A stretch of 34,559 bases of DNA from a virus (lineage: Duplodnaviria; Heunggongvirae; Uroviricota; Caudoviricetes), in IMG/VR virus record IMGVR_UViG_2693429748_000009. One strand, 5' to 3'. Below the pieces are notes generated by a model that did not search any database, was not told the origin of the DNA, and saw only the letters and a list, made by a program, of their open reading frames with translations. Positions 6,236 through 33,988 of this stretch are shown here, in pieces. Position numbers and translations under genes: made by a program. Every line of letters begins with the position of its first letter. The first letter of the stretch is position 1.

Positions 6236-7141
6236 TTAAACACTCCCCACGTTGTACCATATTCCCCCAATCAATTTCTGAATTGGCCTTCTGGCAACAG
6301 TGTCGACAATATCATCCGCATTGCTGTTAATTGCGGCTGTTAAAACATAACCTGACGCATCGCCAAAGCCGTAGTCGCGCCATACGTTTTTATATTCAAT
6401 GCTGCCAAGACGAATATCCCGAACGACATGATTATGCAGCCATGTGCTTAACCAGTTGTTTTCCCACACTGAACCATAAATATCGCCACTAGACGCAACT
6501 TGCGCACCACTTCCCAGCGCAAATCCCCCATCTGTTTTAAAAATGAAATCACCACCACCATCTGAACCGTTATTAATATGAACACCATCACCACCGTTAT
6601 CTTTCCACAAAAACATACGAATTCTTCCGTCTTCGTTGGCGAATGTAATGTGGTGGCGGTAATTACTTTTTAATCTAAAATTGCTGCCATTAGATTCAAT
6701 ATCTTTATAAAGATGTAATCCTAACTCATCAATATGTCCGATGCGCGAACCATTTGAATAGAAGCTAATAATACCATCTCCATCTTGCCTAAATCCGGTG
6801 TCGTTATCTCCCAGAACAATGGAGTTTTCACCCAGTGCGTTATCAGTAGCTCCAATAGCTAGACCTCCTTTAATTTTGGCCCCGTGGCTGACAGATATAG
6901 CACCTGTTCTCAGATTTATAGCGAATGGCCTTAATGGGCCGATATTACCGTTTTCGCCTTGTCCTTCAGCCGTCGGAATGAAATGAAGAAAATCTTCTGA
7001 ACGACGGAAAATTAGACCGAAGGTATCATTGAAAATTCGCAGCGCATTCACCGTGCCAATTTTCAGTTCTCCGGTCATTTTATCGCCGGAACGCTGAACG
7101 GCGTTACCAGCCTTGTTTACCGTTTCCTGTAAACCGAGGTT
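6236..7141 (-). CDS. Alternative tail-fibre C-terminal cassette with no start codon of its own; would be expressed only after fusion to the constant part of the fibre gene by inversion
   Basis: Minus-strand frame is open from just below the stop at 7142..7144 and reads [29 protein letters not shown]...[18 protein letters not shown]. Its first codons are encoded by the crossover site at 7124..7149. Confidence 0.7.
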
Positions 7142-7203: not shown

Positions 7204-7436
7204 GTGCTGATTGGCTATGTAAGGGTATCAACAAATGACCAGAATACAGACCTGCAACGAAACGCTCTTGTTTGTGCAGGATATGAACAAATATTTGAAG
7301 ATAAATTAAGCGGAACAAGGACAGGCCGACCTGGATTAAAACGTGCTTTAAAGCGCCTTCAAAAAGGTGACGCACTGGTTGTCTGAAAACTGGACTGACT
7401 GGGTCACTGTATGCGGCATCTTGTCGTGCTGGTGGT
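7204..7436 (+). pseudogene. pin: Pin/Gin/Hin-family serine DNA invertase, inactivated: two nonsense codons then truncation into a tfa 3' remnant
   Basis: GTG-start frame MLIGYVRVSTNDQNTDLQRNALVCAGYEQIFEDKLSGTRTGRPGLKRALKRLQKGDALVV reaches TGA at 7384..7386 where Trp is expected; a second TGA at 7396..7398. At about 7437 the frame merges into tfa-derived sequence. Confidence 0.75.
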
Positions 7437-7531
7437 GGAAGCCTAGAAAAAGTATCGGGTGTTGCTGAACCGTGTTGATACATCAACTGCACCTGATATT
7501 GAGTGGCCTACGAACCCTGTCAGGGAGTAAT
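7437..7531 (+). repeat. tfa 3'-end remnant (copy 1 of a 72-bp direct repeat) fused downstream of the pin pseudogene
   Basis: Encodes (E)[23 protein letters not shown]..., a lambda-Tfa-like C-terminus. Repeated at 8486..8557 with two mismatches. Confidence 0.7.
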
Positions 7532-7584: not shown

Positions 7585-8253
7585 CTATTTTTTCCCTGAA
7601 GCGGAAAACATTACTACAGTACCTTGAACCCTGGTTTTAACATTCTCGAAATGCTCTGAGAGTATATGTGTTAAGCCTTCTTCGGAATCTTTTGTGTTTG
7701 AAAAGATGCCTTTCTGATTGTAAATGCGCATCAGTTTTTGACCGAAGCTATTGTGCACAACTCCATCGCCAAGAATTGTGGCTCCGTATAGAGTTCCATC
7801 ATCAGTTAAGGCCTGCGCCGCATTGCGTATTACACAGCTTTTTGTAGATATATTTCCAGGCAGGCAGTGAAGAAGGTAAAACATGGAAATGGAATCAAAT
7901 TGACCATGTAACGCCGCGGGATAAGGTTCAAAAACATCATGGCTAATTTTATGTTTAATTTTTGATTCCCCAGCCCTTGTAGATGCCGCGTTCAGGCTAG
8001 CTTCGTTCAAATCCATTAAAGATATCAGACTACTCTCAGGTACGTGAGTAAGGTAAAACCCAGTTCCAACACCAATATCCAGATGGTTGTTACCTAAATG
8101 TTCCAGAAAGTGTGGAAGAAGGTGTTCCTTTGTAGGACATCCCCATGCAAGCCGATTTGATACTCCCAAAACCCACCAGTCATAAAGCTTTAGGGTAAGT
8201 GGTGTGTAAATTTTAGCCCCATCATCTGTGTTTTTTTTCATTAATTTCACCAT
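7585..8253 (-). CDS. Class-I SAM-dependent methyltransferase (small-molecule/RNA type, not an obvious DNA methyltransferase), AT-rich
   Basis: 222 aa with motif I LDIGVGTGFY. No DPPY/NPPY or C5-methyltransferase motifs seen. Low GC compared with its neighbours. Alternative start at 8241. Confidence 0.7.
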   Translation of the reverse strand: MVKLMKKNTDDGAKIYTPLTLKLYDWWVLGVSNRLAWGCPTKEHLLPHFLEHLGNNHLDIGVGTGFYLTHVPESSLISLMDLNEASLNAASTRAGESKIKHKISHDVFEPYPAALHGQFDSISMFYLLHCLPGNISTKSCVIRNAAQALTDDGTLYGATILGDGVVHNSFGQKLMRIYNQKGIFSNTKDSEEGLTHILSEHFENVKTRVQGTVVMFSASGKK

Positions 8254-8355
8254 ATTATAGTTTTATTTGTGAATTAAATCAATTATGGCGATGAATTACA
8301 AGGGGTTAAATGCTGCCGCAGCATAGCGATATTGAAATAGCCTAGTATGCTTCGA

Positions 8356-8557
8356 TACAGCAGGAGCCGAATGGCTGGAAGACCGTCACCACACAGTTCT
8401 ACATCCAGGAATTTAGTGAGTATATTGCGCCACTGCAGGATGCTGTAGATCTGGAGATCGCAACGGAGGAAGAAAACTCGTTGCTGGAAGCCTGGAAGAA
8501 GTATCGGGTGTTGCTGAACCGTGTTGATACATCAACTGCACCTGATATTGAGTGGCC
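8356..8557 (+). pseudogene. Tail-fibre assembly gene 3' fragment (copy 2 of the 72-bp repeat), running into the gap
   Basis: Frame ...[49 protein letters not shown], lambda Tfa C-terminus-like; upstream in-frame TAG. Confidence 0.6.
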
Positions 8558-8568
8558 NNNNNNNNNNN
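8558..8568. other. Assembly gap (11 N)
   Basis: Run of n characters. Confidence 0.99.
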
Positions 8569-9639
8569 GCCGTTCTGGTTTTTCTGTAATGCGCCAGAAG
8601 CCTGATTTACCGTTTCCTGTAAACCGAGGTATTCGATAACGGCGGCAACGGTCGATTTCGCAAGAATATCCCGCCCGACTTTTGTCAGGGTTGCCAGGCT
8701 GGCGACATCATTCCCCGTAAAATACGGAAACCTGTCTGCCGCAGTAGTAAGTCCGGCCAGCGCCGTCAGGGTGGCATCTTTCGGTTGCTTACCCGCAAGC
8801 GCGTTAGTCATGGTGGTCGCAAAATTCGGGTCGTTGCCCAGCGCCGCCGCCAGCTCGTTCAGTGTGTTCAGTGCATCAGGCGAAGAGTCTACAAGTGCGG
8901 CAATCGCAGCCATAACGAAAGCCGTGCTTGCGATTTGGGTATTATTCGTTCCCTGTCGCGCAGTTGGTGTTGTTGGCGTTCCGGTCAGTGCCGGGCTGTT
9001 TAATGGGGCTTTCTTGTTCGTTTCATCCATTACTGCCTTAACGGCTTTTGGTGTCGCTGCCAGCGTTTCAGACGTGCTGTTGGTGGCGTTGCTGAGCTGG
9101 ACAAGGCCTTTTGCGGTCAGCGAGGCGTCCGGGTGACGTCGTGACTGTTCATGCTCTTTCAGTTTGTCATCCACGTAATTCACTGTGGCCATCACCATGG
9201 TGTTATCCACGGTAAGCGCCACAGTGGCAGTGCTGGATACGGTCAGAATGGTGCGAAATGTTTGTGCACGTCCGGATCCTTCGGCAACGGTTGGCTTGTA
9301 ACTTTCGGCAGTATTGCCTACCGCGATCAAATCGCCGTGCTCATCAAACACACCAATTTCCCGGATCCAGAATCCGCCCGTTTCAGGAGGAATAACCAGC
9401 TCCGCAATAATGTGGTTCTGATGTGTTGCGTCCAGGGTGACGCGATTAACGGTATGTCGCCACACCTCATGCACAAGACGGGTCTGCTTACTGTCTGGCG
9501 TGGGTAAAGTACCGCCGCCGTCACCCACGGCCATATGTGTCAGGCGGACAGGTTTCCCATCTGGCGCGGTTGCCTGCGCTAATTTTTTTGCACCCGTATC
9601 GGTGATAATGGTTTTAAATTTTCGTGTTGTGGTACTCAT
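8569..9639 (-). CDS. P2 gpH-like tail fibre, N-terminal and shared part; 3' end lost in the gap
   Basis: MSTTTRKFKTIITDTGAKKL... with repeated LTAKG/SATNSTSETLAATPKAVK-type motifs. Sits after gpI/gpJ as in P2. The ORF-track residues beyond the gap are artefact. Confidence 0.8.
8614..8639. other. gix/pix-like 26-bp crossover site inside the P2-like H gene
   Basis: TTCCTGTAAACCGAGGTATTCGATAA on the plus strand; codes ...[11 protein letters not shown] on the minus strand. Confidence 0.6.
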
Positions 9640-20951: not shown

Positions 20952-20978
20952 CGCGCTTCGCTTGTCTGCTGCTTCGCC

Positions 20979-21001
20979 GGGGCATAAAAAATTTATGCCC
21001 C
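20979..21001. terminator. Strong hairpin after the portal gene, possible terminator at the cos-proximal end
   Basis: GGGGCATAAA-AAA-TTTATGCCCC, no clean downstream T-run. Confidence 0.4.
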
Positions 21002-21442
21002 GACTCTCCAGCTCCTGTATCAGTCAGATAATTTCACGACGCTTTCCTGCTGATTGCCATCATCGACAGTCAGACTCTTACGCAATCCCACCTCGTTGAC
21101 TGCATATTCTCGCCGTCTCAGTGCGATTTTGACGGCCTTACCTTTCACCCCATCAAATCAAAAGCCCTCACGTCTTTTTCACGCTCAGCGTGAGAAATAC
21201 AGCCATTCTGTTGTATCTCTGCGACATCGTTCAGGGAATGCTATTTACCCCCTGAAACGCGGGCTGTTCCCCCGTCACCTGCGCGCAGAAAAAACGCGTT
21301 TTTTTGTGCATGCACGGATCCTTGACGGATCCAGCCGCCACGCGGGCCGGAAGGGCAAAAAGTCGTTCAAAAAAATTGTGCAAATTTGTGCACTATTGTG
21401 CATTTATAAAATCAACTAAAAAACACCTAGTGTGACTTACCT

Positions 21443-21628
21443 CTACCACTCGATCGGCACGTAGTCATTAAGTTCCGGAGACCAATTGCACTTTTCACAT
21501 CTGTGTTTTCCATTCTGGCAGATACATAAACGATAACGGCCACAATGCGGGCACCCATTTTCACCATTATCATAATCACCGAGCGACCATTCCTGCATAA
21601 GCAGCTCTTCTTCATCATCATTTAGCAT
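21443..21628 (-). CDS. Small Cys-rich (zinc-ribbon-like) acidic protein, unknown function
   Basis: 61 aa with CPHCGRYRLCICQNGKHRCEKC; strong SD (AGGGGGA) 5 nt upstream. Confidence 0.55.
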   Translation of the reverse strand: MLNDDEEELLMQEWSLGDYDNGENGCPHCGRYRLCICQNGKHRCEKCNWSPELNDYVPIEW

Positions 21629-21642
21629 TAATCCCCCTTGAG

Positions 21643-21882
21643 CTATTTACTCTTCTCGGCCCTCAAAATCATACGAGAACCATCATCCAGCTCCCAATTA
21701 ATTTCACCGCCTTCTGCCATGACTAGATGCCAAACGAGTTGAGCGGCCTCGTTGGTTACATCGCGACCGCGATCATTTCCTACGCGGCGTTTTGTTCCGT
21801 CTCCTAAGTCACGCATTTTTGCCAATACGATGGTTTTTGATAGCGGTGAAAAACCAAGCTGTAGTCGTGCTGAATTACTCAC
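21643..21882 (-). CDS. Hypothetical protein (79 aa, GTG start overlapping the upstream stop)
   Basis: ORF with GTGA start/stop overlap with 21879..22403. Confidence 0.45.
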   Translation of the reverse strand: MSNSARLQLGFSPLSKTIVLAKMRDLGDGTKRRVGNDRGRDVTNEAAQLVWHLVMAEGGEINWELDDGSRMILRAEKSK

Positions 21883-22403
21883 TGGCTGCCCCCTTTGTAC
21901 TGTGTTAACTCTTCCTGCTCCTGCATCATGCGATTGACCTGAACGCGTGTGCGTCGAACGGCAAAATTAAATTGAAACATGAGCCGGAACATTTCTGATG
22001 CTTCCGTGTGAGCATCACGGATAGGTGACAGGCGGTACAGTTCTGCCTCCGTAGCTTGTTGAATCAATGACAGATCAAATTGAAGTGCGGGTCTGGTACA
22101 TTTTGCACATCTGGCAGCAAGCTCCGGTATTAGTCTCTTAACGAAGGTGTTTTGCACCGCTTTGTTGATTTGTGTCTGCATCCAAATCGCAAATTTCAGC
22201 GAACGCATAAGTTTGATAGCCTCGGGCAGCGGCAGATAGATCATGCTGGTAGATTTGGGTGGTTGGTGAACCATCTTCACGGATACGCGATTTCGCAGCG
22301 TTCGGAAAATCGTGTTCCCAACAACAGCTTCTACGGATACAGGACAGGGAGCCAGACCAGCCCGCAGTGCTTCTTTCATTAGCATGTATTCGTATTTTTT
22401 CAT
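21879..22403 (-). CDS. Hypothetical protein (174 aa), unknown function
   Basis: GAGGA Shine-Dalgarno 7 nt upstream of the ATG; same strand as parR. Confidence 0.55.
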   Translation of the reverse strand: MKKYEYMLMKEALRAGLAPCPVSVEAVVGNTIFRTLRNRVSVKMVHQPPKSTSMIYLPLPEAIKLMRSLKFAIWMQTQINKAVQNTFVKRLIPELAARCAKCTRPALQFDLSLIQQATEAELYRLSPIRDAHTEASEMFRLMFQFNFAVRRTRVQVNRMMQEQEELTQYKGGSQ

Positions 22404-22463
22404 CGTGTTTTCCTCGTGCGGGGCGACAGTGCACCCCGATAAAATTAAAAGCCGTCAAATTCG

Positions 22464-22775
22464 TCATTCAGGAAATAATGCCCGGATATTCCCTGCTATC
22501 TGACTGGTTATCTGTGCGGTTGGTACTGGCTGTGGCACGGGGCGTTCTGTCCTGGTTTGTGTCACCGATAACGCCTCATCGTCAGCCCATGCAGCCAGTC
22601 GGTAAGCCTCTGCTGGATTCATTTTCAGAAGTGCCAGCCCGGCCAGAAAAGCCACGCGTTGGCCGCTTTTGCGGGCTTCTGGTGTAAGGCTGCCCAGCCA
22701 GGCGCATGCTTCGCTTTCGTTCTTGACGGCCGCAGGCTTCAGATAGAAACTTATCCGTCTGGTTGGTGTCGTCAT
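22464..22775 (-). CDS. parR: ParR-like centromere-binding adaptor (ribbon-helix-helix)
   Basis: MTTPTRRISFYLKP...AFLAGLALL...NIRALFPE resembles R1 ParR (recalled). AAGGAG SD lies inside the parM 3' end. Confidence 0.6.
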   Translation of the reverse strand: MTTPTRRISFYLKPAAVKNESEACAWLGSLTPEARKSGQRVAFLAGLALLKMNPAEAYRLAAWADDEALSVTQTRTERPVPQPVPTAQITSQIAGNIRALFPE

Positions 22776-22779
22776 TGGT

Positions 22780-23739
22780 TTACTCCTTGTCCATTGCGTA
22801 CAGCCCATTAACCAGAGCAAACTGTGGCACCCCGTCCGCGATGAAAGTCGCATTAACTCCGCAGGCTTCGCGGATAGCGGGTGCCACAATCTCCGCCCCT
22901 CCACCGACAACCATCACCCGCCCGTAACCCGAAAAACCCGCCAGCGCGCGGATCACGCGTTGTTTCAGTGTTTCTTCCTTTTCACGAATAACCGCCATCA
23001 GGCTGGCGTAATGCGCGTCATTGTGGATGTGCTGGCGCAGCCAGGCTTCATCATGGCGATGTTCGATAATGGTATTGGCGATGTGGTGACTGGTGCGCAT
23101 ACCGTTAGTGGCCATCACCGACAGTACGGCATCGGCCATCAGAGAAACGCCTACGTGTGGATCGCAAAACACCTGGCTGATACCTGCCAGTTGCCCCTGA
23201 ACCTTTGCCACATCCAGCGTGGTTCCGCCCAAATCCACAATCAGCAGGGATTCAAACGGACTCATGTCAGCCAGTGCCTTAAAGCCAGCCGGAATGGATT
23301 CAGGCATAACCCGCACGTTACGGATAGTGAATGCTTCGCCGTTCTGGTACTCCACCGGGCGCATAACGTTCGCTTTTTTGCGGTTGATGTTGGCCATGTC
23401 CGGCTGTGCGTTTGTGTCGAAATACTCGCTCAGTGGCAGGGTGACAACCACATCCACCTCCTGTGGCGTGATGCCTGATTTGACCAGCGCGTGATGAATG
23501 GCAATGACATTTACATCGCTGTACTGGTATTGCGTGTCGGTTGTCTGGACAAAGCGATCGCTGACCGGATCAAAACCATAGCGCACGCCATCAAGCATGT
23601 AGTTCGCGGGCTGCATGCCACCGAACGGCGCAGACCATTCCGACTTGAAGCTGTTCGGGCTGATGGCGTTGCGGCGTTCGCCGTTCTCAGTCCATGCCAG
23701 CTTGATGTTGGTGGAGCCGTCGTCGATACAAATTTTCAT
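22780..23739 (-). CDS. parM: ParM/StbA-family actin-like segregation ATPase
   Basis: 319 aa: MKICIDDGSTNIKLAW..., YSDVNVIAIHHAL, MPESIPAG, DLGGTTLD, GGGAEIV. Close to R1 ParM as recalled. Confidence 0.8.
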   Translation of the reverse strand: MKICIDDGSTNIKLAWTENGERRNAISPNSFKSEWSAPFGGMQPANYMLDGVRYGFDPVSDRFVQTTDTQYQYSDVNVIAIHHALVKSGITPQEVDVVVTLPLSEYFDTNAQPDMANINRKKANVMRPVEYQNGEAFTIRNVRVMPESIPAGFKALADMSPFESLLIVDLGGTTLDVAKVQGQLAGISQVFCDPHVGVSLMADAVLSVMATNGMRTSHHIANTIIEHRHDEAWLRQHIHNDAHYASLMAVIREKEETLKQRVIRALAGFSGYGRVMVVGGGAEIVAPAIREACGVNATFIADGVPQFALVNGLYAMDKE

Positions 23740-23767
23740 GTCGCTTTTCCTTATGTTGATTAATTAA

Positions 23768-23882
23768 TCGTTTACGGGATTCTGAAATCCCGTTTTTGCC
23801 TGTTTTGTGCGCGCTTCATATATCGCTGCGCGTTTTTTGCTCATTTACGGGATTCGTGAGTCCCGTTTCTGTCTGTTTTTTG
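23768..23882. repeat. Two roughly 40-bp direct repeats, each with internal dyad symmetry, upstream of parM (candidate parC centromere/operator)
   Basis: TTTACGGGATTCTGAAATCCCGTTTTTGCCTGTTTTG at 23768..23807 and TTTACGGGATTCGTGAGTCCCGTTTCTGTCTGTTTTTTG at 23842..23882. The second overlaps the last codons of gene A. Confidence 0.45.
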
Positions 23883-26638
23883 TTTCCACTGGTCAGGCCA
23901 CCCCGCAGCAGGTCTGCTTTGCGGCGGGCGCGTTCAGTGGTTTCACTGATTCTCTGTGCGTGCTCTGCGTCGCGGATGGCGCGCAGCATGTCAGAAAGCA
24001 CGGTAACGGGTGTTTTCATGGTGTTCTGGTCCTGCTGAAGTGTGGATGCCAGGCGTGCGGCGGCTTCAGGGTCTGATGCCCCCAGCTGTGTCAGATAGCT
24101 GGCGACCGGGTTATGGCGGATCTCCGTGCTGCTTACGCCATGATTACGGCTCAGGCGCTGCCAGAGCTGCGTGATTCGGCTGTCCGGGCGGGTATCCGGT
24201 TTGCGTACAATTTCAAATCCCTGCGGTGCAATGATGCTGCCGTCAACGTACAGACTGCCGCCCCGTAACAGGTGCTGCATCTGTTGTTCACCGATATGCA
24301 GGCCGAGAGATTCAGCAGACTCCCGCCATTCTTTAGCGAGTAATTCGTGGTTATCAGGCAAAGGCCGCTGCTGTTTGCGGCTCTGTGTCCAGCTCTGCAT
24401 TTCATCACTGCTGTTTTTTGCCTGTTTGTCACGAAGCGAACGCATCAGCGCCCGGCGTTCGTGCCGTTTCAGTGAGCGCATCCATTCATCCACATCAACG
24501 CCGTCAGGGAGCTGCGGCCACGGTGCTGGCCGTTCTTCCGGCTGTTCTGTCCCGTTGTTGTCCGTTTCCTGTACACGGGGACAGTTATTGCCACGAGTCC
24601 AAGGGGCGGCAGGGCCGCCCTGAAGGTCAAAACCATTTTCGCGGGCGCTGTCTTCCGCTTCCGGTTTGCGTCTTACCAGCTTCCAGTTATCCGGATGCGT
24701 GCACACACGGGAGGATTCCCCGATGAGTGGTGACCAGATCCCGTAAATCTGTACGCTCTGTTCGCCGTAATCGTTCAGCTCATCGGCGAGGTCGTAGGCG
24801 GTGCGAATCAGGTAGTCTTTGCGTGGAACAAGTACGCCGCCCTGTTTCTCTATGTAGGTGGCAAAACATCCGGCATCAGCGGCGGCAAGAACCGCATCCA
24901 TTGCGTCATCCTTCAGCCGTTGCGGGCCTTCCGGGTTGCGTGCCATCTGGCTGGCAAGGCGGCGCAGTTCACGCCATACCTGGCGGGAGGGGATGCCAAA
25001 GAACTGGAACTGGCGGACCCGGTGAAGGCGCGCCCAGCCGATGGCGCGTTCCACGCTCTCGGCCATTGATTTTCCGGTTTCGTGGTCAACGCGTGGCTTG
25101 CCCGTTTTCGGGTCGATGCCATCCACGGCGCGGCTGTCCAGGTTTTTCCCGATGTAGGTGGCGATGTAGCTGGTTGGCGTGCCTTTTGAGCCGTCTACAT
25201 ACTCCGCCTTAAAGCGCGGAGTTATGTCATCGCCCAGCTCGTGACGATCTTCCTGAATGGCAATATCGCGGGTGTGGGACACAATGGTGTCGATTTCTTC
25301 CGGATGAGCAAAGACCATCATATGCCAGTGCACGGTGCCGTCATGGTGAGGCTCCGCCGTGCGGATGCCATACCAGCGCAGGCCGTCGCGGTTCAGTTTT
25401 TTGCGGACCGTCGCAAAAAACGTGTTAACCAGGTAATCGCTGGAGTCGCGCATTGTGGCCCCGTTCCATTTGGGATTCGGATGACCGTTCTCCGTTGTGG
25501 CGTGGTATTTTGACGGGCAGGTGACAGTCAGAAACACCGCTTTGTCGCCACGGGCTTCGGCCAGAAGTTCCAGCCCCTTCATGGTGGCCATCATTTCTGC
25601 CTTACGGTGAACCGGGTTACTTACTCCCGCGTAATACACCGTCTCGAGATCAATCGTGAACCCGTCTTCATTTTCCAGCATGAAACTTTTCAGGAAATCG
25701 CGTGTTTTCTCGCGCTGTGCGCGAAACTCGCTTAACGCGTCCTGGCTCAGATAGGGCGATGTTTTTCTGGAAACCAGACAGGCGGCGCGAAGTTGTTCTT
25801 CTCTCCACTCGCAACGTAACAGCCACAGTTTGCGTTTCCACCATTCCGCACAGGTCAGGCGAAGGATTGCGCCCGGCAGCAGTTCTGTGTCCGGTTCGTG
25901 CCTCCGGTCTTTGTCTGTTGTCAGTGCGTCATAATGCGGAGGCATGGCGTGTAAGTGTAACGCCATGCGGGCCAGCATCTGATACGCCTTCAGCGTTACA
26001 TCCATGGTCAGCTCGCCATCAGTCGCGCCAAAACCATCGCAGAGTTTTTCGAAGGTGCTGCTGAACATCGCCGCCGTCATGGTGGCCAGCGTCTGTATCT
26101 GGTGTTTGTTGAGTTGCGGCAGGTAAAGCAAATCGTCCAGGCGTTCACGTCCGGCAAGGGAGCGATAACCCGGTGTCAGCCAGTGTCCGTCAGTGCGATC
26201 CAGACGTTCGAATATTTTGCGCAGGGTTCCGCGTGCATAGCGTTCCGCCTGCCAGCTCTTTTTGCCTTTCCGGCGATCGGCTTCCTGTTTTTTGCGCAGG
26301 AAGGAGAGGTGGCGAATAAGCGGATCGCGCAGATAGGACGGCAGCAGGCGCAGCGAGGCCATGGCTTCATCCACCGCGCCGCGTGCCTGTTTTCTGGCGT
26401 CTCCTGCCAGTGTGATGGTTTTGTCCTGTTTTTCCTGTGCGTCCAGGCTTTTATTAATCAGGTTGCCCAGTGGCGTGGCGGAGAACGCCGCATCAGCCAT
26501 TTCCTGGCGGCGCTCGTTCTCTGCCCGGTGGGCATCCAGCCAGGAGGAAAGCGCGGATTCAGGAGCGGGGATCCCCGTTCCTTCACGCCCCACTGCGTGG
26601 CGCGGTTGTTGCCAGTCCCTGATGTACTCTGCCGTCAT
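23816..26638 (-). CDS. Replication initiator endonuclease (P2 gpA-like, rolling-circle type)
   Basis: 940 aa with HWHMMVF metal-binding motif and the paired-tyrosine motif YIATYIGK (Y-x3-Y). The N-terminal extent is uncertain. Confidence 0.75.
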   Translation of the reverse strand: MTAEYIRDWQQPRHAVGREGTGIPAPESALSSWLDAHRAENERRQEMADAAFSATPLGNLINKSLDAQEKQDKTITLAGDARKQARGAVDEAMASLRLLPSYLRDPLIRHLSFLRKKQEADRRKGKKSWQAERYARGTLRKIFERLDRTDGHWLTPGYRSLAGRERLDDLLYLPQLNKHQIQTLATMTAAMFSSTFEKLCDGFGATDGELTMDVTLKAYQMLARMALHLHAMPPHYDALTTDKDRRHEPDTELLPGAILRLTCAEWWKRKLWLLRCEWREEQLRAACLVSRKTSPYLSQDALSEFRAQREKTRDFLKSFMLENEDGFTIDLETVYYAGVSNPVHRKAEMMATMKGLELLAEARGDKAVFLTVTCPSKYHATTENGHPNPKWNGATMRDSSDYLVNTFFATVRKKLNRDGLRWYGIRTAEPHHDGTVHWHMMVFAHPEEIDTIVSHTRDIAIQEDRHELGDDITPRFKAEYVDGSKGTPTSYIATYIGKNLDSRAVDGIDPKTGKPRVDHETGKSMAESVERAIGWARLHRVRQFQFFGIPSRQVWRELRRLASQMARNPEGPQRLKDDAMDAVLAAADAGCFATYIEKQGGVLVPRKDYLIRTAYDLADELNDYGEQSVQIYGIWSPLIGESSRVCTHPDNWKLVRRKPEAEDSARENGFDLQGGPAAPWTRGNNCPRVQETDNNGTEQPEERPAPWPQLPDGVDVDEWMRSLKRHERRALMRSLRDKQAKNSSDEMQSWTQSRKQQRPLPDNHELLAKEWRESAESLGLHIGEQQMQHLLRGGSLYVDGSIIAPQGFEIVRKPDTRPDSRITQLWQRLSRNHGVSSTEIRHNPVASYLTQLGASDPEAAARLASTLQQDQNTMKTPVTVLSDMLRAIRDAEHAQRISETTERARRKADLLRGGLTSGNKKQTETGLTNPVNEQKTRSDI

Positions 26639-29072: not shown

Positions 29073-29384
29073 ATGTCAATAGAGATATCAAAGAAGCTAA
29101 AAGCAATTCGAGAATCTGAGGGGCTTAGTCAGGCAAAGTTCGCGGATTCAATAGGTATTGCGGTTGGTACGGTTAAGCAATACGAGACTGGTATTCGAGG
29201 TGTGGGAACGGAGGTTTTACTGAAAATCACAATGCACCCGGAATTTAAAAAATACACTACGTGGTTGATGAGTAACGAAACAAATGAGGCTGCTGGGCAG
29301 ATCAGTCCTTCTCTCTCCCCTGATGGGCCAGAAAACACATCGTCTTCTCAAAAATCCCGCAAGACTGGCACACAGCCCGGCTAA
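29073..29384 (+). CDS. Immunity repressor (P2 C-like HTH)
   Basis: MSIEISKKLKAIRESEGLSQAKFADSIGIAVGTVKQYETG (HTH) and FKKYTTWLMSNE tail; AGGTG SD. The track N-terminus from 28971 is probably spurious. Confidence 0.7.
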   Translation: MSIEISKKLKAIRESEGLSQAKFADSIGIAVGTVKQYETGIRGVGTEVLLKITMHPEFKKYTTWLMSNETNEAAGQISPSLSPDGPENTSSSQKSRKTGTQPG

Positions 29385-29433
29385 TCATGGAACGCTGGGG
29401 GCATGGTGGTCTTGTAACGCTGGGGCTTCACGA

Positions 29434-30411
29434 ATGAGCATAAAATCAATTCCGGGAGGGTATCTTCTTGACATGCGTCCTGAGGGGCGTAAAGGCAAAC
29501 GCATTCGCAAAAAATTTAAAACGAAATCGGATGCAGTTTTATATGAGCGGTGGGTGCTGGCGCAACAGCATAACAATGAGTGGAAAGGAAACTCCATTGA
29601 TCGCCGTCCGCTGTCAGTGCTTATTGACTTGTGGTGGAAATACCACGGCCAGCTAATGAAGTCAGGGCATAACACGCGCCTTAAATTGCTGCGCTTGAGT
29701 GAGGCAATGGATGACCCGTGCGTGCATAAACTTAATACAACGATGCTCACCGAGCTACGTGTGTCCAGGATAGAGCAGGGGATACAGCCCAGCACCATAA
29801 ATCGAGAGATTGGGGCGTTAAGCGCGATGTTTACCGCACTCATCTCATCCGGCCATTTTCTTAACGATAACCCCGTTCAAGGCCTTAAAGGAATGAAGGT
29901 TAACGAGCGTGAAATGGGATATCTGAGTAAGTCTGAATGTGTTCAGTTGCTGGATGCACTGGCTGAAAATCCCGATGAACGGCTGGCCGTCGAAATCCTT
30001 CTGTCGACCGGGGCGCGATGGGGCGAGGTAGCGGCACTGGAGCAGCGCCGTGTTCTTCATTGTCGAATCACTTTTTCAAAAACGAAGAACAGCAAAAACC
30101 GTACCGTTCCTATTTCTGAAAGCCTGTTTGAAAAGATCAAAAAACGGGGCGGGAAACTGGTGTTTCCGACGCTGGATTATTCATTGGTTCGCGATGTCAT
30201 CAAAACGGTCGCACCTGATGTTCCTGACGGCCAGGCTGTTCATGCGCTGCGCCACACCTTCGCCAGTCATTTCATGATGAACGGCGGCAATATTCTGACG
30301 CTCCAGAAAATTCTGGGGCACGCAAAGATTCAGACAACGATGATTTATGCCCATCTTGCGCCGGATTACTTGCAGGATGCGGTGAGGTTTAATCCCTTGG
30401 GAGGAATGTAA
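29434..30411 (+). CDS. int: Tyrosine integrase (P2 Int family)
   Basis: LSTGARWGEVAAL ... HALRHTFASHFMMNGGNILTLQKILGH ... MIYAHLAPDYL. Start MSIKSIPGGY preferred. Confidence 0.85.
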   Translation: MSIKSIPGGYLLDMRPEGRKGKRIRKKFKTKSDAVLYERWVLAQQHNNEWKGNSIDRRPLSVLIDLWWKYHGQLMKSGHNTRLKLLRLSEAMDDPCVHKLNTTMLTELRVSRIEQGIQPSTINREIGALSAMFTALISSGHFLNDNPVQGLKGMKVNEREMGYLSKSECVQLLDALAENPDERLAVEILLSTGARWGEVAALEQRRVLHCRITFSKTKNSKNRTVPISESLFEKIKKRGGKLVFPTLDYSLVRDVIKTVAPDVPDGQAVHALRHTFASHFMMNGGNILTLQKILGHAKIQTTMIYAHLAPDYLQDAVRFNPLGGM

Positions 30412-30413
30412 CT

Positions 30414-30914
30414 ATGGAAATAAAAAAACCTACAAAAAAAGAGTTATATGACTATTTACTATCGAAATATATAGAAGATAAATGCAAAGAAGAAGCTGAT
30501 GAAATCAATAAGAAGTCGATGAGTCGTGTCAAAAAACATAAAGAGCGGCTGATGGAGATTACGCCAGAAATCTTCTTCCGTTTCTTGTCTGAGAAGGGGG
30601 TCTCCAGTGTCTGCCCTTCATGTGGATCGTCGCGATTATCTGTTCCAGAAAGTATGGATCTTTGCTGGGATAAAAATAAGAAACCAGAAAATTTTAACAA
30701 TCTACCCCTGGAGGAACAGAGTGAGTTAATTAAAGAGAACATAAAGCATTATGTATCTTATGCTTTTTTGGGTGATGTTAAGAGCATACCTGATATGCGC
30801 AAAACTTATTACACGCTGCATTGCCTGAATTGTGGTTACCTGAGCCTTTATCGTACGTCTGCGGTGCTGAAGTGGTTGGAGAAAGACAAAGCGCAGGATG
30901 GTGATAATGGGTAA
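30414..30914 (+). CDS. Hypothetical protein with split CxxC...CxxC (zinc-ribbon-like), AT-rich
   Basis: 166 aa with CPSCGSS and CLNCG; starts 2 nt after the int stop. Confidence 0.6.
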   Translation: MEIKKPTKKELYDYLLSKYIEDKCKEEADEINKKSMSRVKKHKERLMEITPEIFFRFLSEKGVSSVCPSCGSSRLSVPESMDLCWDKNKKPENFNNLPLEEQSELIKENIKHYVSYAFLGDVKSIPDMRKTYYTLHCLNCGYLSLYRTSAVLKWLEKDKAQDGDNG

Positions 30915-31452
30915 TGTAGCAAGAAATCTTTTCGGTAATTCAGCAGGTAGTGTGTCGCATTCTGAGCGTGATGTGCTTTATCATGGTGGCGATGGCGGCA
31001 GTAGTGGAGGCGGAATGTCAGATAAACTTGAAAGGCGAATTGAGCGGCTCGAAGGTGATTTATCGCTAACAAGAAACGACCTTGCGACGCTTGCTGAACG
31101 CACTACAAACCTCTCAACTAAAGCCGATGTTGGTGAGGTGAAAGGTGAACTCAAAGCAGACATAGCACATCTGAAAGGTGATCTTGAATGCGATATTGCG
31201 AATCTGAAAGGTGAGCTTAAATCTGATACAGCTAACCTGAAAGAGCAGCTCAAATCAGACATTAACAGCCTGAAGGGTGAGCTTACCGAAGCGATGGATA
31301 AACGCTTTGACAAGATTATGGATGAGATGAATCGGCGGTTTGACAAGGTTGATGATAATACGAAGTGGCGTTGGAGTGGCATTATTGTGCCAGTGTGCAC
31401 AACCATTTTCACAGCGGCGGTTGCTGTATTTGTTGCTAAATTTGTTGGCTGA
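30898..31452 (+). CDS. Coiled-coil protein with five 11-residue repeats and a C-terminal transmembrane helix
   Basis: Repeats LKGDL/LKGEL...; C-terminal IIVPVCTTIFTAAVAVFVAKFVG. Start ambiguous (30898, 30907 or 31015). Confidence 0.6.
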   Translation: MVIMGNVARNLFGNSAGSVSHSERDVLYHGGDGGSSGGGMSDKLERRIERLEGDLSLTRNDLATLAERTTNLSTKADVGEVKGELKADIAHLKGDLECDIANLKGELKSDTANLKEQLKSDINSLKGELTEAMDKRFDKIMDEMNRRFDKVDDNTKWRWSGIIVPVCTTIFTAAVAVFVAKFVG

Positions 31453-31644: not shown

Positions 31645-32625
31645 ATGCTGACACTTGCCCGCCAACAACAGCGACAAAATATTCGCTGGTTATTATGCCT
31701 GTCAGTTTTGATGCTGCTGGCGCTTCTCTTAAGCCTTTGCGCCGGTGAACAATGGATTTCGCCAGGTGACTGGTTTACTCCTCGTGGCGAACTGTTCGTC
31801 TGGCAAATTCGCCTGCCACGTACGCTGGCTGTATTGCTGGTTGGTGCGGCGCTGGCTATATCCGGCGCTGTAATGCAGGCGTTGTTTGAAAATCCTCTGG
31901 CAGAACCTGGACTACTTGGCGTCTCTAACGGCGCAGGCGTGGGGCTTATCGCCGCGGTATTGCTTGGGCAAGGGCAACTCCCCAACTGGGCGCTAGGGCT
32001 GTGTGCGATTGCTGGCGCGCTTATCATCACTTTAATACTCTTACGTTTCGCCCGTCGTCATCTTTCGACCAGTCGGTTATTGCTGGCTGGCGTTGCATTA
32101 GGGATTATCTGTAGCGCACTAATGACGTGGGCTATCTACTTTTCCACCTCTGTTGATTTACGTCAGCTGATGTACTGGATGATGGGCGGTTTTGGCGGCG
32201 TAGACTGGCGGCAAAGCTGGCTGATGCTGGCATTGATCCCCGTGTTGTTGTGGATCTGTTGTCAGTCCAGGCCGATGAATATGTTAGCACTTGGCGAGAT
32301 CTCGGCGCGGCAACTGGGTTTACCCCTGTGGTTCTGGCGCAATGTGCTGGTGGCAGCGACCGGCTGGATGGTTGGCGTCAGTGTGGCGCTGGCGGGTGCT
32401 ATCGGCTTTATTGGTCTGGTGATCCCACATATTCTTCGGTTGTGTGGTTTAACCGATCATCGCGTATTACTTCCCGGCTGCGCGCTGGCAGGGGCGAGCG
32501 CAGTGCTGCTGGCCGATATTGTAGCGCGCCTGGCATTAGCTGCCGCAGAGCTGCCTATTGGCGTGGTCACCGCAACGTTGGGTGCGCCGGTGTTTATCTG
32601 GTTATTGTTAAAAGCAGGACGTTAG
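31645..32625 (+). CDS. btuC: Vitamin B12 ABC transporter permease
   Basis: 326 aa, polytopic membrane protein; matches BtuC as recalled; followed by btuE and btuD. Confidence 0.9.
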
Positions 32626-32687
32626 CCGCAAAAAGACGGTCTATGATTAAAAGCTAAGATTTTTACTGACCACACCCAGGAGAAACG

Positions 32688-33239
32688 ATGCAAGATTCCA
32701 TTCTGACGACCGTAGTGAAAGATATCGACGGTGAAGTGACCACGCTGGAGAAGTACGCCGGTAATGTGCTGTTGATTGTCAATGTCGCCTCAAAGTGTGG
32801 CTTAACGCCGCAATATGAGCAGTTGGAGAATATTCAGAAAGCCTGGGCCGATCGAGGTTTTGTGGTGCTGGGATTCCCGTGCAACCAGTTTCTGGAACAA
32901 GAACCGGGCAGCGATGAAGAGATTAAAACTTACTGTACCACCACATGGGGGGTGACGTTCCCGATGTTCAGTAAGATTGAAGTTAACGGCGAAGGACGCC
33001 ATCCGCTGTATCAAAAATTGATTGCCGCAGCGCCGACCGCAGTCGCGCCGGAAGAGAGCGGATTCTATGCCCGTATGGTCAGCAAAGGTCGTGCACCGCT
33101 GTACCCTGATGATATTTTATGGAATTTTGAGAAATTTTTAGTTGGCAGGGACGGATTGGTCATCCAGCGTTTTTCCCCGGATATGACGCCGGAAGACCCC
33201 ATTGTGATGGAAAGCATTAAACTGGCGTTGGCAAAATAA
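32688..33239 (+). CDS. btuE: Glutathione peroxidase-family protein
   Basis: 183 aa with [10 protein letters not shown] and WNFEKFL motifs; between btuC and btuD. Confidence 0.9.
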
Positions 33240-33988
33240 TGTCTATTGTGATGCAGTTACAGGATGTTGCGGAATCTACCCGCCTGGGGCCACTTTCTGG
33301 CGAGGTTCGGGCTGGGGAGATCCTGCACCTGGTGGGGCCGAATGGCGCGGGTAAGAGTACCTTACTGGCACGAATGGCCGGAATGACCAGCGGTAAGGGA
33401 AGTATTCAGTTCGCGGGGCAACCACTGGAAGCATGGTCCGCAACAAAACTCGCGCTGCATCGCGCCTATCTTTCACAACAGCAGACGCCGCCGTTTGCAA
33501 TGCCGGTCTGGCACTATCTGACACTGCATCAGCACGATAAAACGCGTACCGAACTACTGAATGATGTCGCAGGGGCGCTGGCTCTTGATGACAAACTCGG
33601 ACGTAGCACCAATCAACTTTCCGGCGGTGAATGGCAACGCGTACGTCTTGCTGCGGTGGTGCTGCAAATCACACCACAAGCCAATCCCGCAGGCCAATTG
33701 CTGCTTCTTGATGAGCCGATGAACAGTCTTGATGTTGCGCAACAAAGTGCGTTAGACAAAATTCTGAGCGCTCTGTGTCAGCAAGGACTGGCGATTGTGA
33801 TGAGCAGTCACGATCTCAACCACACATTGCGTCATGCGCATCGGGCGTGGTTGCTAAAAGGTGGAAAAATGCTGGCCAGTGGACGCAGAGAAGAGGTGCT
33901 CACGCCGCCAAATCTGGCGCAGGCCTATGGGATGAATTTTCGCCGTCTGGATATCGAAGGTCACAGAATGCTGATTTCGACCATCTGA
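33239..33988 (+). CDS. btuD: Vitamin B12 ABC transporter ATP-binding protein
   Basis: Walker [10 protein letters not shown], signature LSGGE, Walker B LLLLDEP. Confidence 0.9.

Follow-up and report, generated by a model that had tools for sequence, protein, structure and literature searches.

Introduction

Why should a temperate phage that integrates into the host chromosome carry a partition system of the plasmid type? The question is raised by IMG/VR record IMGVR_UViG_2693429748_000009, a stretch of 34,559 nucleotides (nt) which was analysed at its full length and is called the window here. In this window the genes of a ParM-type ATPase and a ParR-type adaptor (together parMR) lie directly behind the replication initiator gene A. 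The window is a P88-like (Xuanwuvirus, Peduoviridae) prophage of the P2 family and it is chromosomally integrated, with the integrase at 29284..30411 and the host genes btuC/btuE/btuD beyond it at 31645..33988. The feature itself is already known. A putative partition system was reported in about a quarter of P2-like phages (Rousset et al. 2022, PMC9122126), RefSeq already annotates both parM and parR, and no functional study of P88-like parMR was found in the literature. The first-pass annotation of the window had described parMR and three small genes next to it as a cargo block, and had considered a phage-plasmid lifestyle, a repurposed cytoskeletal function or an exclusion and defence module as its meaning.

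In our study, parM, parR and two dyad repeats are proposed, with moderate confidence, to form a type II (ParMRC-like) DNA-segregation cassette which would act on extrachromosomal phage circles during gene A replication. To what is already known, the sequence comparisons add that parMR belongs to the backbone of the replication module and not to the hotspot cargo, that the boundary of the neighbouring hotspot lies at the parR stop codon, that the ParR clade is specific to these phages and that the dyads at the gene A/parM junction are a candidate centromere. The five features on which this proposal is built are listed below in the order of transcription; lengths of proteins are in amino acids (aa).

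23816..26638, minus strand: replication initiator gene A, 940 aa (PF05840 Phage_GPA, 6.6e-131; phrog_91, 'nicking at origin of replication')
23841..23882: distal 42-nt repeat, dyad ACGGGAC-N6-ATCCCGT, inside the gene A 3' coding end; candidate ParR site (parC-like)
23768..23809: proximal 42-nt repeat, perfect dyad ACGGGAT-N6-ATCCCGT, in the 76-nt gene A-parM spacer
22780..23739, minus strand: parM, actin-fold ATPase of type II partition systems, 319 aa (PF06406, 2.7e-82; PF21523, 1.3e-68)
22464..22775, minus strand: parR, StbB-family adaptor, 103 aa, with a predicted ribbon-helix-helix-type N-terminal domain (PF10784, 2e-23)

Results and Discussion

Identification of ParM and ParR

The product of 22780..23739 covers both ParM Pfam domains end to end and matches R1 ParM (PDB 1mwk) over its full length (E-value 8.5e-93, residues 2-316), and its identity to R100 ParM is 47%. 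DDGST, DLGGTT and GGGA, the motifs for nucleotide binding, do not vary among 14 diverse homologues with identity down to 49%. By its phosphate-1, phosphate-2 and adenosine motifs and its likeness to the R1 protein, the gene product can be assigned as the ParM of a type II ParMRC system. Both ParM and ParR had been recognised in the first-pass annotation and the two identifications are borne out by the Pfam, PDB and R100 comparisons; a profile search finding 22780..23739 unlike ParM had been named there as the outcome that would speak against them, and the match obtained was a full-length one.

In case of parR, the start codon is placed 5 nt past the parM stop codon and the ATG is preceded by an AAGGAG Shine-Dalgarno (SD) sequence within the parM 3' end, as had been described earlier. 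The phage ParR profile matches pB171 ParR (2jd3; E-value 8.5e-4, residues 9-75) and the N-terminal region is 32% identical to R100 ParR over 56 aa. A small adaptor directly downstream of parM with a predicted ribbon-helix-helix domain has the features of a ParR, and 22464..22775 is so assigned. Among relatives neither the N-terminus (MTTPTRRISFYLKP) nor the C-terminal tail NIxAxFPE varies, and the linker of residues 65-95 is hypervariable. More distant phage ParR proteins end in KNAxxLFP (KNxxxLFP), close to the C-terminus KKNAMKLIN of R100 ParR; the tail of R1 ParR is reportedly (PDB entry 4A62; Gayathri et al. 2012) the ParM-binding peptide. The AlphaFold2 monomer model of ParR is weak (predicted local distance difference test score, pLDDT, 57) and has an extended N-terminus and helices at residues 20-29, 32-52 and 54-61, beyond which residues 67-87 are disordered and 87-100 form a C-terminal helix; this is the expected layout. 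A Foldseek search with this weak model against PDB gave nothing below an E-value of 3.

The ParR proteins fall into two allele groups, one 84-100% and the other about 50-55% identical to the copy in the window, and the ParM beside them is almost invariant. The difference between the groups is mostly in linker residues 65-95 and partly in the helical core, and the DNA-contacting beta-strand is identical. The grouping was seen over the related loci numbered L014-L093.

Dyad repeats at the gene A/parM junction

The two 42-nt repeats are 81% identical and 73 nt apart from start to start, and the dyad pattern ACGGGAT-N6-ATCCCGT occurs twice in the 34.5-kb window against 0.05 occurrences expected by chance. 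The proximal repeat is followed by a conserved ATTAATCAAC-ATAAGGAA box which holds the parM SD sequence. Throughout 78 distinct upstream sequences the dyad arms are retained (5-7 of 7 pairs) and the spacers are variable. In the prophages of Hafnia, Plesiomonas, Serratia and Enterobacter a CGGG[AT] core is present at the same position. It takes the form of two 26-nt repeats with 72-nt spacing in Plesiomonas, where again one copy lies inside the gene A 3' end, of a long inverted repeat beginning AAAAACGGGAAC in the Serratia and Enterobacter loci, and of a single CGGGTT...ATCCC dyad in Hafnia, followed there by the same ATTAATCAA-ATAAGGAA box. From this comparison across lineages, a common core goes with a common ParR strand, RRISFYL or, in Serratia, KISFYL. 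The dyad is absent from the gene A-to-cos region of P2, which has no parMR. These observations point to the dyads being the cognate ParR site.

Conservation of the gene A-parM-parR segment

Directly upstream of parM is gene A, with its stop codon at 23816, and the two are parts of one module. P88, Citrobacter phage PhiSM and several further isolates have this gene A-parM-parR segment with 95-99% DNA identity; P88 and PhiSM have been described as inducible, integrated phages (PMC5285337, PMC6456863). In complete Escherichia coli genomes parMR is present in 1308 of 5426 (~24%), including EDL933, O157:H7, O25b:H4 and ST131, and 1454 of its copies are chromosomal as compared to 2 on plasmids (>99.8% chromosomal). 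At a coverage of at least 80%, parMR is found in 1278 of these genomes and P88-type gene A in 1323, which is a co-occurrence of about 97%. The pairwise ratio of nonsynonymous to synonymous substitution rates (dN/dS) is 0.053 for parM, taken over 72 distinct alleles of which every one is full length, 0.139 for gene A, 0.219 for parR and 0.011 for the portal gene.

Over 80 IMG/VR loci the ParM protein is 98-100% identical and gene A 72-100%. Beyond this tight clade the identity of ParM falls to 62-63% (Hafnia, Plesiomonas), 58% (Serratia) and 54% (Enterobacter), and in those P2-like prophages the order gene A, parM, parR, variable genes, portal is kept. In ten loci, E. coli copies among them, the gene A-parMR segment (ParM 99-100%) is joined to a portal which is only 30% identical to that of the window; since the module is found with two portal types, parMR travels with the replication module and not with the head module. 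This type of ParR was found by tblastn in 7 of 72,556 plasmid records, all seven of them copies of this phage, and ParM homologues in 50,697 phage records are limited to P88-like phages and the P1-like phage-plasmid D6 (48% identity). A scan of genome contigs with a single ParM query returned 3 close loci only, and a scan of the viral collection with the Hafnia ParM returned zero loci. A P88-like prophage (ParM 98%, portal 100% identical) was also seen on a 226-kb contig labelled as the Gram-positive 'Vagococcus sp. WN89Y' (NZ_JBQPOM010000071.1), an assembly which is most likely contaminated or mislabelled.

Judged by these comparisons, parMR is a conserved backbone component of the replication module of the P88-like lineage and not cargo. 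Variation among near-identical phages, which marks the cargo of a hotspot, is absent from parMR and present in 21391..22463. Hence the cargo block of the first-pass annotation holds for the three small genes, which lie in this variable slot, and fails for parMR, a part of the lineage backbone by its co-occurrence with gene A, its dN/dS and its kept gene order. It had also been said there that the idea would fall if the block were a conserved core part of P2-family genomes with an assigned role; parMR has turned out to be conserved core of a sublineage, and no role is assigned to it. A plasmid ParMRC system is carried by an autonomously replicating low-copy replicon, whereas the present one is integrated, as the chromosomal and plasmid counts given above show for E. 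coli.

Proposed role of the cassette

The five open reading frames (ORFs) from parM to the last of the three small genes are all on the minus strand and co-oriented with gene A, and each small gene has a G-rich SD sequence. By consensus scan, neither a sigma-70 promoter between gene A and parM nor a sense-strand terminator in the gene A-parM spacer was found. The simplest reading is a single transcription unit which runs from the early operon through gene A to about 21378. As no promoter or sense-strand terminator separates them, parMR would be read through from gene A within this early operon, the unit ending at a terminator past the gene of a 61-aa protein. ParR dimers would then use the invariant RRISFYL beta-strand to bind the CGGGAT/ATCCCG dyads, and the conserved C-terminal tail of ParR would capture the ends of ParM filaments. 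ATP-driven polymerisation of ParM may push apart or position the circular phage genomes made by gene A. The cassette would act while the phage DNA is extrachromosomal, after infection or excision, so that the circles would be spread through the cell and to both daughters; upkeep of the prophage as a plasmid would not be its task. The repurposed cytoskeletal role is in this form the best of the three meanings considered in the first-pass annotation.

A stricter form of this proposal, which we hold more tentatively, makes parMRC an obligatory part of the P88-like rolling-circle replication module, positioning or segregating the monomeric circles produced by gene A and possibly also stimulating the HUH nuclease gpA directly. 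As R1 ParM and ParR bind and stimulate the HUH relaxase TraI (PMC4949242), direct coupling of ParMR to the HUH-type gpA is conceivable.

Several observations weigh against the segregation cassette. For the predicted ribbon-helix-helix fold of ParR, the model is weak (pLDDT 57) and the fold search gave zero matches. The candidate centromere has 2 units only, whereas parC of R100 has 5+5 iterons which flank a promoter, and the consensus scan of the present spacer gave none. Both dyads also score as terminator-like hairpins on the plus strand; an effect at the RNA level, or a block to antisense transcription, would be an alternative role for them. When G-U and A-C substitutions were counted over the 78 distinct sequences, the proximal dyad favoured the sense strand by 12 to 4 and the distal, coding dyad the antisense strand by 12 to 2; these counts carry no consistent RNA-strand signal, RNA folding z-scores are alike on both strands, and an Rfam search of the region found nothing. 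Further, the dyads do not covary with the two ParR allele groups. This sameness is explained, though not proven, by the identical beta-strand; with the allele differences falling mainly in the linker and the DNA-contacting strand being common to both groups, the comparison of alleles with dyads is uninformative on ParR binding. The time at which parMR acts is inferred only, and a complete P88-like genome deposited as a 34,461-bp circular 'plasmid' (NZ_CP148288.1) indicates that an episomal state sometimes occurs.

Alternative explanations

The last record also bears on the view, published as a suggestion by Rousset et al. 2022 (PMC9122126), that these are facultative phage-plasmids in which parMRC keeps the prophage as a low-copy plasmid if integration fails or the attachment (att) site is occupied. 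ParMRC classically stabilises low-copy plasmids, the phage-plasmid D6 carries the ParM homologue mentioned above, and the circular record, from a cat isolate, is a whole P88-like genome with its integrase. We consider this view unlikely, as 1454 chromosomal copies stand against 2 on plasmids and the integrase is retained. The 7 plasmid records with this ParR are mostly very large or linear and unplaced, and the 34,461-bp circular record is the only one of its kind among the 72,556 plasmids, without recurrence. Its phage is 100% identical over 24,965 bp to a chromosomal prophage in a human isolate (NZ_CP148378.1), which shares the Z1323 strain-name prefix, and a lone circular contig could just as well come from phage DNA that was excised or induced. 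Moreover, gene A drives rolling-circle replication, and a theta-type plasmid replicon was not seen. A 26.7-kb 'plasmid' of Shigella boydii, taken up as a possible episome, was rejected because it is a linear contig interrupted by copies of IS1. The stable phage-plasmid lifestyle of the first-pass annotation is disfavoured on these counts.

A joint exclusion or defence module, in which ParMR with or without the three small genes hinders phages or plasmids that enter the cell (through partition incompatibility or interference by filaments, for example), is quite improbable. The interval between gene A and cos is a known defence hotspot in P2 (PMC9122126, PMC13586616), neighbouring slot variants carry toxin-antitoxin and PARIS-like or DUF4760-like genes, and the two ParR allele groups could define specificity groups. 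However, the five proteins have zero matches in PADLOC, with no family of its database at E-values up to 1 for any of them, parMR does not vary in the manner of defence cargo, and the small genes shuffle independently of parMR, combining freely with other partners and with either ParR allele; the allele difference itself is mostly in the linker and not in the DNA-binding strand. Somewhat less probable still is a function in the lysogen, with ParMR expressed from the integrated prophage and acting on the host chromosome or on fitness. Magaziner et al. 2019 list the partition system as a 'fitness factor' in PhiSM (PMC6456863), and in the window parMR persists despite disruption of the tail-fibre region by insertion sequences (IS), but in a single defective copy such retention is what recent decay would leave, and it is uninformative on function. 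Further, no upstream promoter was detected, and co-orientation and tight linkage with the lytic gene A point to expression from the early operon. That parMR is a non-functional relic of an old plasmid-phage recombination is hardly credible: nothing speaks for it beyond the oddity of a partition system in an integrating phage, and it is effectively refuted by the signal of selection (ParM dN/dS 0.053, 72 distinct alleles all full length), by the invariant catalytic motifs and by the synteny kept across genera.

The variable slot and its three small genes

The position of the locus is equivalent to the tin/old interval of P2 between gene A and cos/portal, as had been recognised earlier, and the five ORFs, their couplings and the two dyad repeats were all found at the coordinates given in the first-pass annotation. 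The true variable slot is smaller than the block described there. It spans 21391..22463, that is 1.07 kb between parR and the cos flank. When related loci are anchored at the portal, conservation holds for ~440 nt, to about 21390, and is random beyond; when they are anchored at the parR stop codon it is random at once. The slot, its content and its flank comprise the following features.

21879..22403, minus strand: first slot gene, 174-aa orphan protein, present in 9 of 50 related loci with differing neighbours
21643..21882, minus strand: DUF7446 protein, 79 aa, a promiscuous small temperate-phage gene (PF24233, 9.7e-17; phrog_1578, 2e-32)
21443..21628, minus strand: Cys4 zinc-ribbon-like protein, 61 aa, CxxC...CxxC (phrog_24897, 2.6e-46), with a AAGGGGGA Shine-Dalgarno sequence
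21372..21402, minus strand: terminator-like hairpin (21393-21378) with a T-run, where the transcription unit ends and the variable slot has its right edge
20952..21390: conserved cos-proximal backbone from the portal stop codon to the variable slot, 70-91% column identity in 50 related loci

In 50 loci the whole parR-portal interval, which comprises the hotspot and the ~440-nt conserved cos flank, measures 990-2852 bp and holds >25 gene families, among them ead/Ea22-like genes (19 loci), a ClpX-type zinc-finger protein (13), the 174-aa protein (9) and DUF7446 with the zinc ribbon (5). The 174-aa protein has zero matches in Pfam, PHROG, PADLOC, NCBIfam and a PDB profile search. Its clusters number 8 in a set of 5.8 billion sequences, and an exhaustive search of 1.84 billion proteins with hidden Markov models gave only 3 representatives. 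Its AlphaFold2 model (pLDDT 50) was set aside and was not used for fold search. The GTG start of the 79-aa ORF overlaps the stop codon of the 174-aa ORF as GTGA, a coupling that the first-pass annotation had correctly described. DNA copies of the DUF7446 gene, 80-92% identical, are present in the small-gene arrays of lambdoid, P1-like and Yersinia phages and also in plasmids of roughly 48 kb and 93 kb. The zinc-ribbon matches of the 61-aa protein are weak (PF12760, 0.005; RpoM, 0.02), and the statement that none of the three small proteins has an assignable function stands. The 61-aa gene accompanies DUF7446 in four loci and the trio of the window is unchanged in three of them. Elsewhere the 174-aa gene is found with ead/Ea22 and the pair of DUF7446 and zinc ribbon with other genes, and from these differing partners the 174-aa gene and the pair are considered as separate modules. 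All three are probably early-expressed accessory proteins of the kind found in the lambdoid ead/Ea22 region.

Slot variants with defence-like or toxin-antitoxin cargo were seen in eight loci, one of which has a YafO toxin annotated by RefSeq. By reading of ORF translations, this cargo includes a PARIS-like AAA ATPase and its 172-aa partner, one Doc/Phd-like and one HigBA-like pair, membrane proteins that are DUF4760-like and a DUF3800-like protein of 268 aa; several of the slot-variant genes are on the opposite strand and are read towards parR. At the edge of the cos flank three TGCACAA(T) repeats with a period of 10 (21372-21402) overlap the terminator-like hairpin and are kept in most related loci; a part in packaging, or a further array for protein binding, is conceivable. 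Within the flank, near 21330-21350, lies a CGCGTGGCGG stretch which, from the cos sequences of 186 and P2, may be cos-like.

Other features of the prophage

Two IS3-family copies, 99% identical and each with orfA (HTH_Tnp_1) and orfB (rve), were seen at 646-~1900 and 3607-~4860, both within the tail-fibre/tail-fibre-assembly region. The region also has a 244-nt inverted repeat (98%; 1926-2169/8614-8857) and duplicated assembly genes. The prophage of the window is probably defective for tail fibres, though its parMR is intact. In the same region two 76-nt direct repeats (96% identical; 7433-7508 and 8482-8557) bracket an ORF for a 222-aa S-adenosylmethionine-dependent (SAM) methyltransferase (7585..8253, minus strand), which is inserted between the gene of the tail-fibre N-terminal part (8413..9639) and a piece for the C-terminal part (6236..7078). 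An Rfam match to IS009 (8333..8536, plus strand, 121 bits) overlaps the right-hand repeat, and lambdoid phages carry a 99% identical methyltransferase cassette adjoining tail-fibre assembly genes.

Between the integrase and btuC two overlapping ORFs (30414..30914 and 30898..31452, plus strand) encode a protein of 166 aa, which gives a weak zinc-ribbon signal, and a coiled-coil protein of 184 aa, with only weak coiled-coil-type PADLOC matches for the two. It is possible that they are cargo at the integrase-att end, which is a minor hotspot in P2 (PMC13586616).

Implications

In about one fourth of the sequenced E. coli genomes parMR is present, and the purifying selection on it is comparable in strength to that on structural genes. 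If phage DNA is organised by it during replication, as proposed, the idea of a phage-encoded cytoskeleton, which is currently based on PhuZ of jumbo phages and AlpC of CGP3, would extend to ordinary small temperate coliphages and would do so through a textbook ParM. If the stricter form of the proposal holds, a bona fide R1-type ParM system would for the first time be seen to serve a Gram-negative tailed phage outside stable plasmid lysogeny. P88 and PhiSM would be tractable models. Surveys of P2-like hotspots should count parMR as backbone and begin the slot after parR, or else partition genes will inflate the number of defence-hotspot 'systems'.

Comparison with known systems

Among the known systems closest to the cassette are the ParMRC (StbA/StbB) systems of the IncFII plasmids R1 and R100 and of pB171. 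In common with these, the phage has a full-length ParM with all nucleotide-binding motifs, a ParR of the same Pfam family whose N-terminal domain aligns with those of R100 and pB171 ParR and whose tail resembles the R100 tail, and the order repeats, parM, parR. Unlike them, it sits in an integrating P2-family phage directly behind a rolling-circle gene A. It has two 42-nt dyad units, one of them within a coding region, whereas in R100 a promoter is surrounded by 10 iterons of 11 bp. Its ParR clade is absent from true plasmids among the 72,556 records searched by tblastn.

Among phages that are kept as plasmids, P1 (ParAB), N15 (SopAB) and D6 (StbA-type ParM) are likewise temperate tailed phages with a plasmid-type partition system, but they are maintained extrachromosomally and are common in plasmid collections, whereas P88-like phages keep an integrase. 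In case of P2 itself, the tin/old hotspot occupies the same gene A-cos interval and 21391..22463 behaves as that hotspot. However, tin and old of P2 are read towards gene A from their own promoter, whereas the five genes of the present locus are co-oriented with gene A; moreover, parMR itself is not variable and the three cargo genes are without a match to a defence model.

The functional model adopted here is that of AlpC/AlpA (alpS) of CGP3, an integrated prophage of Corynebacterium glutamicum, with which the architecture was compared only. Both are integrated prophages with an actin-like filament former and an adaptor. In CGP3 the adaptor AlpA is co-transcribed with the actin-like AlpC and binds sites upstream of the operon, and AlpAC is expressed early after induction and is required for efficient phage DNA replication (PMC4446434). 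The two differ in that CGP3 is an unrelated phage of a Gram-positive host and AlpC is a distant actin-like protein, whereas the P88-like phages would use a ParM of the R1 type.

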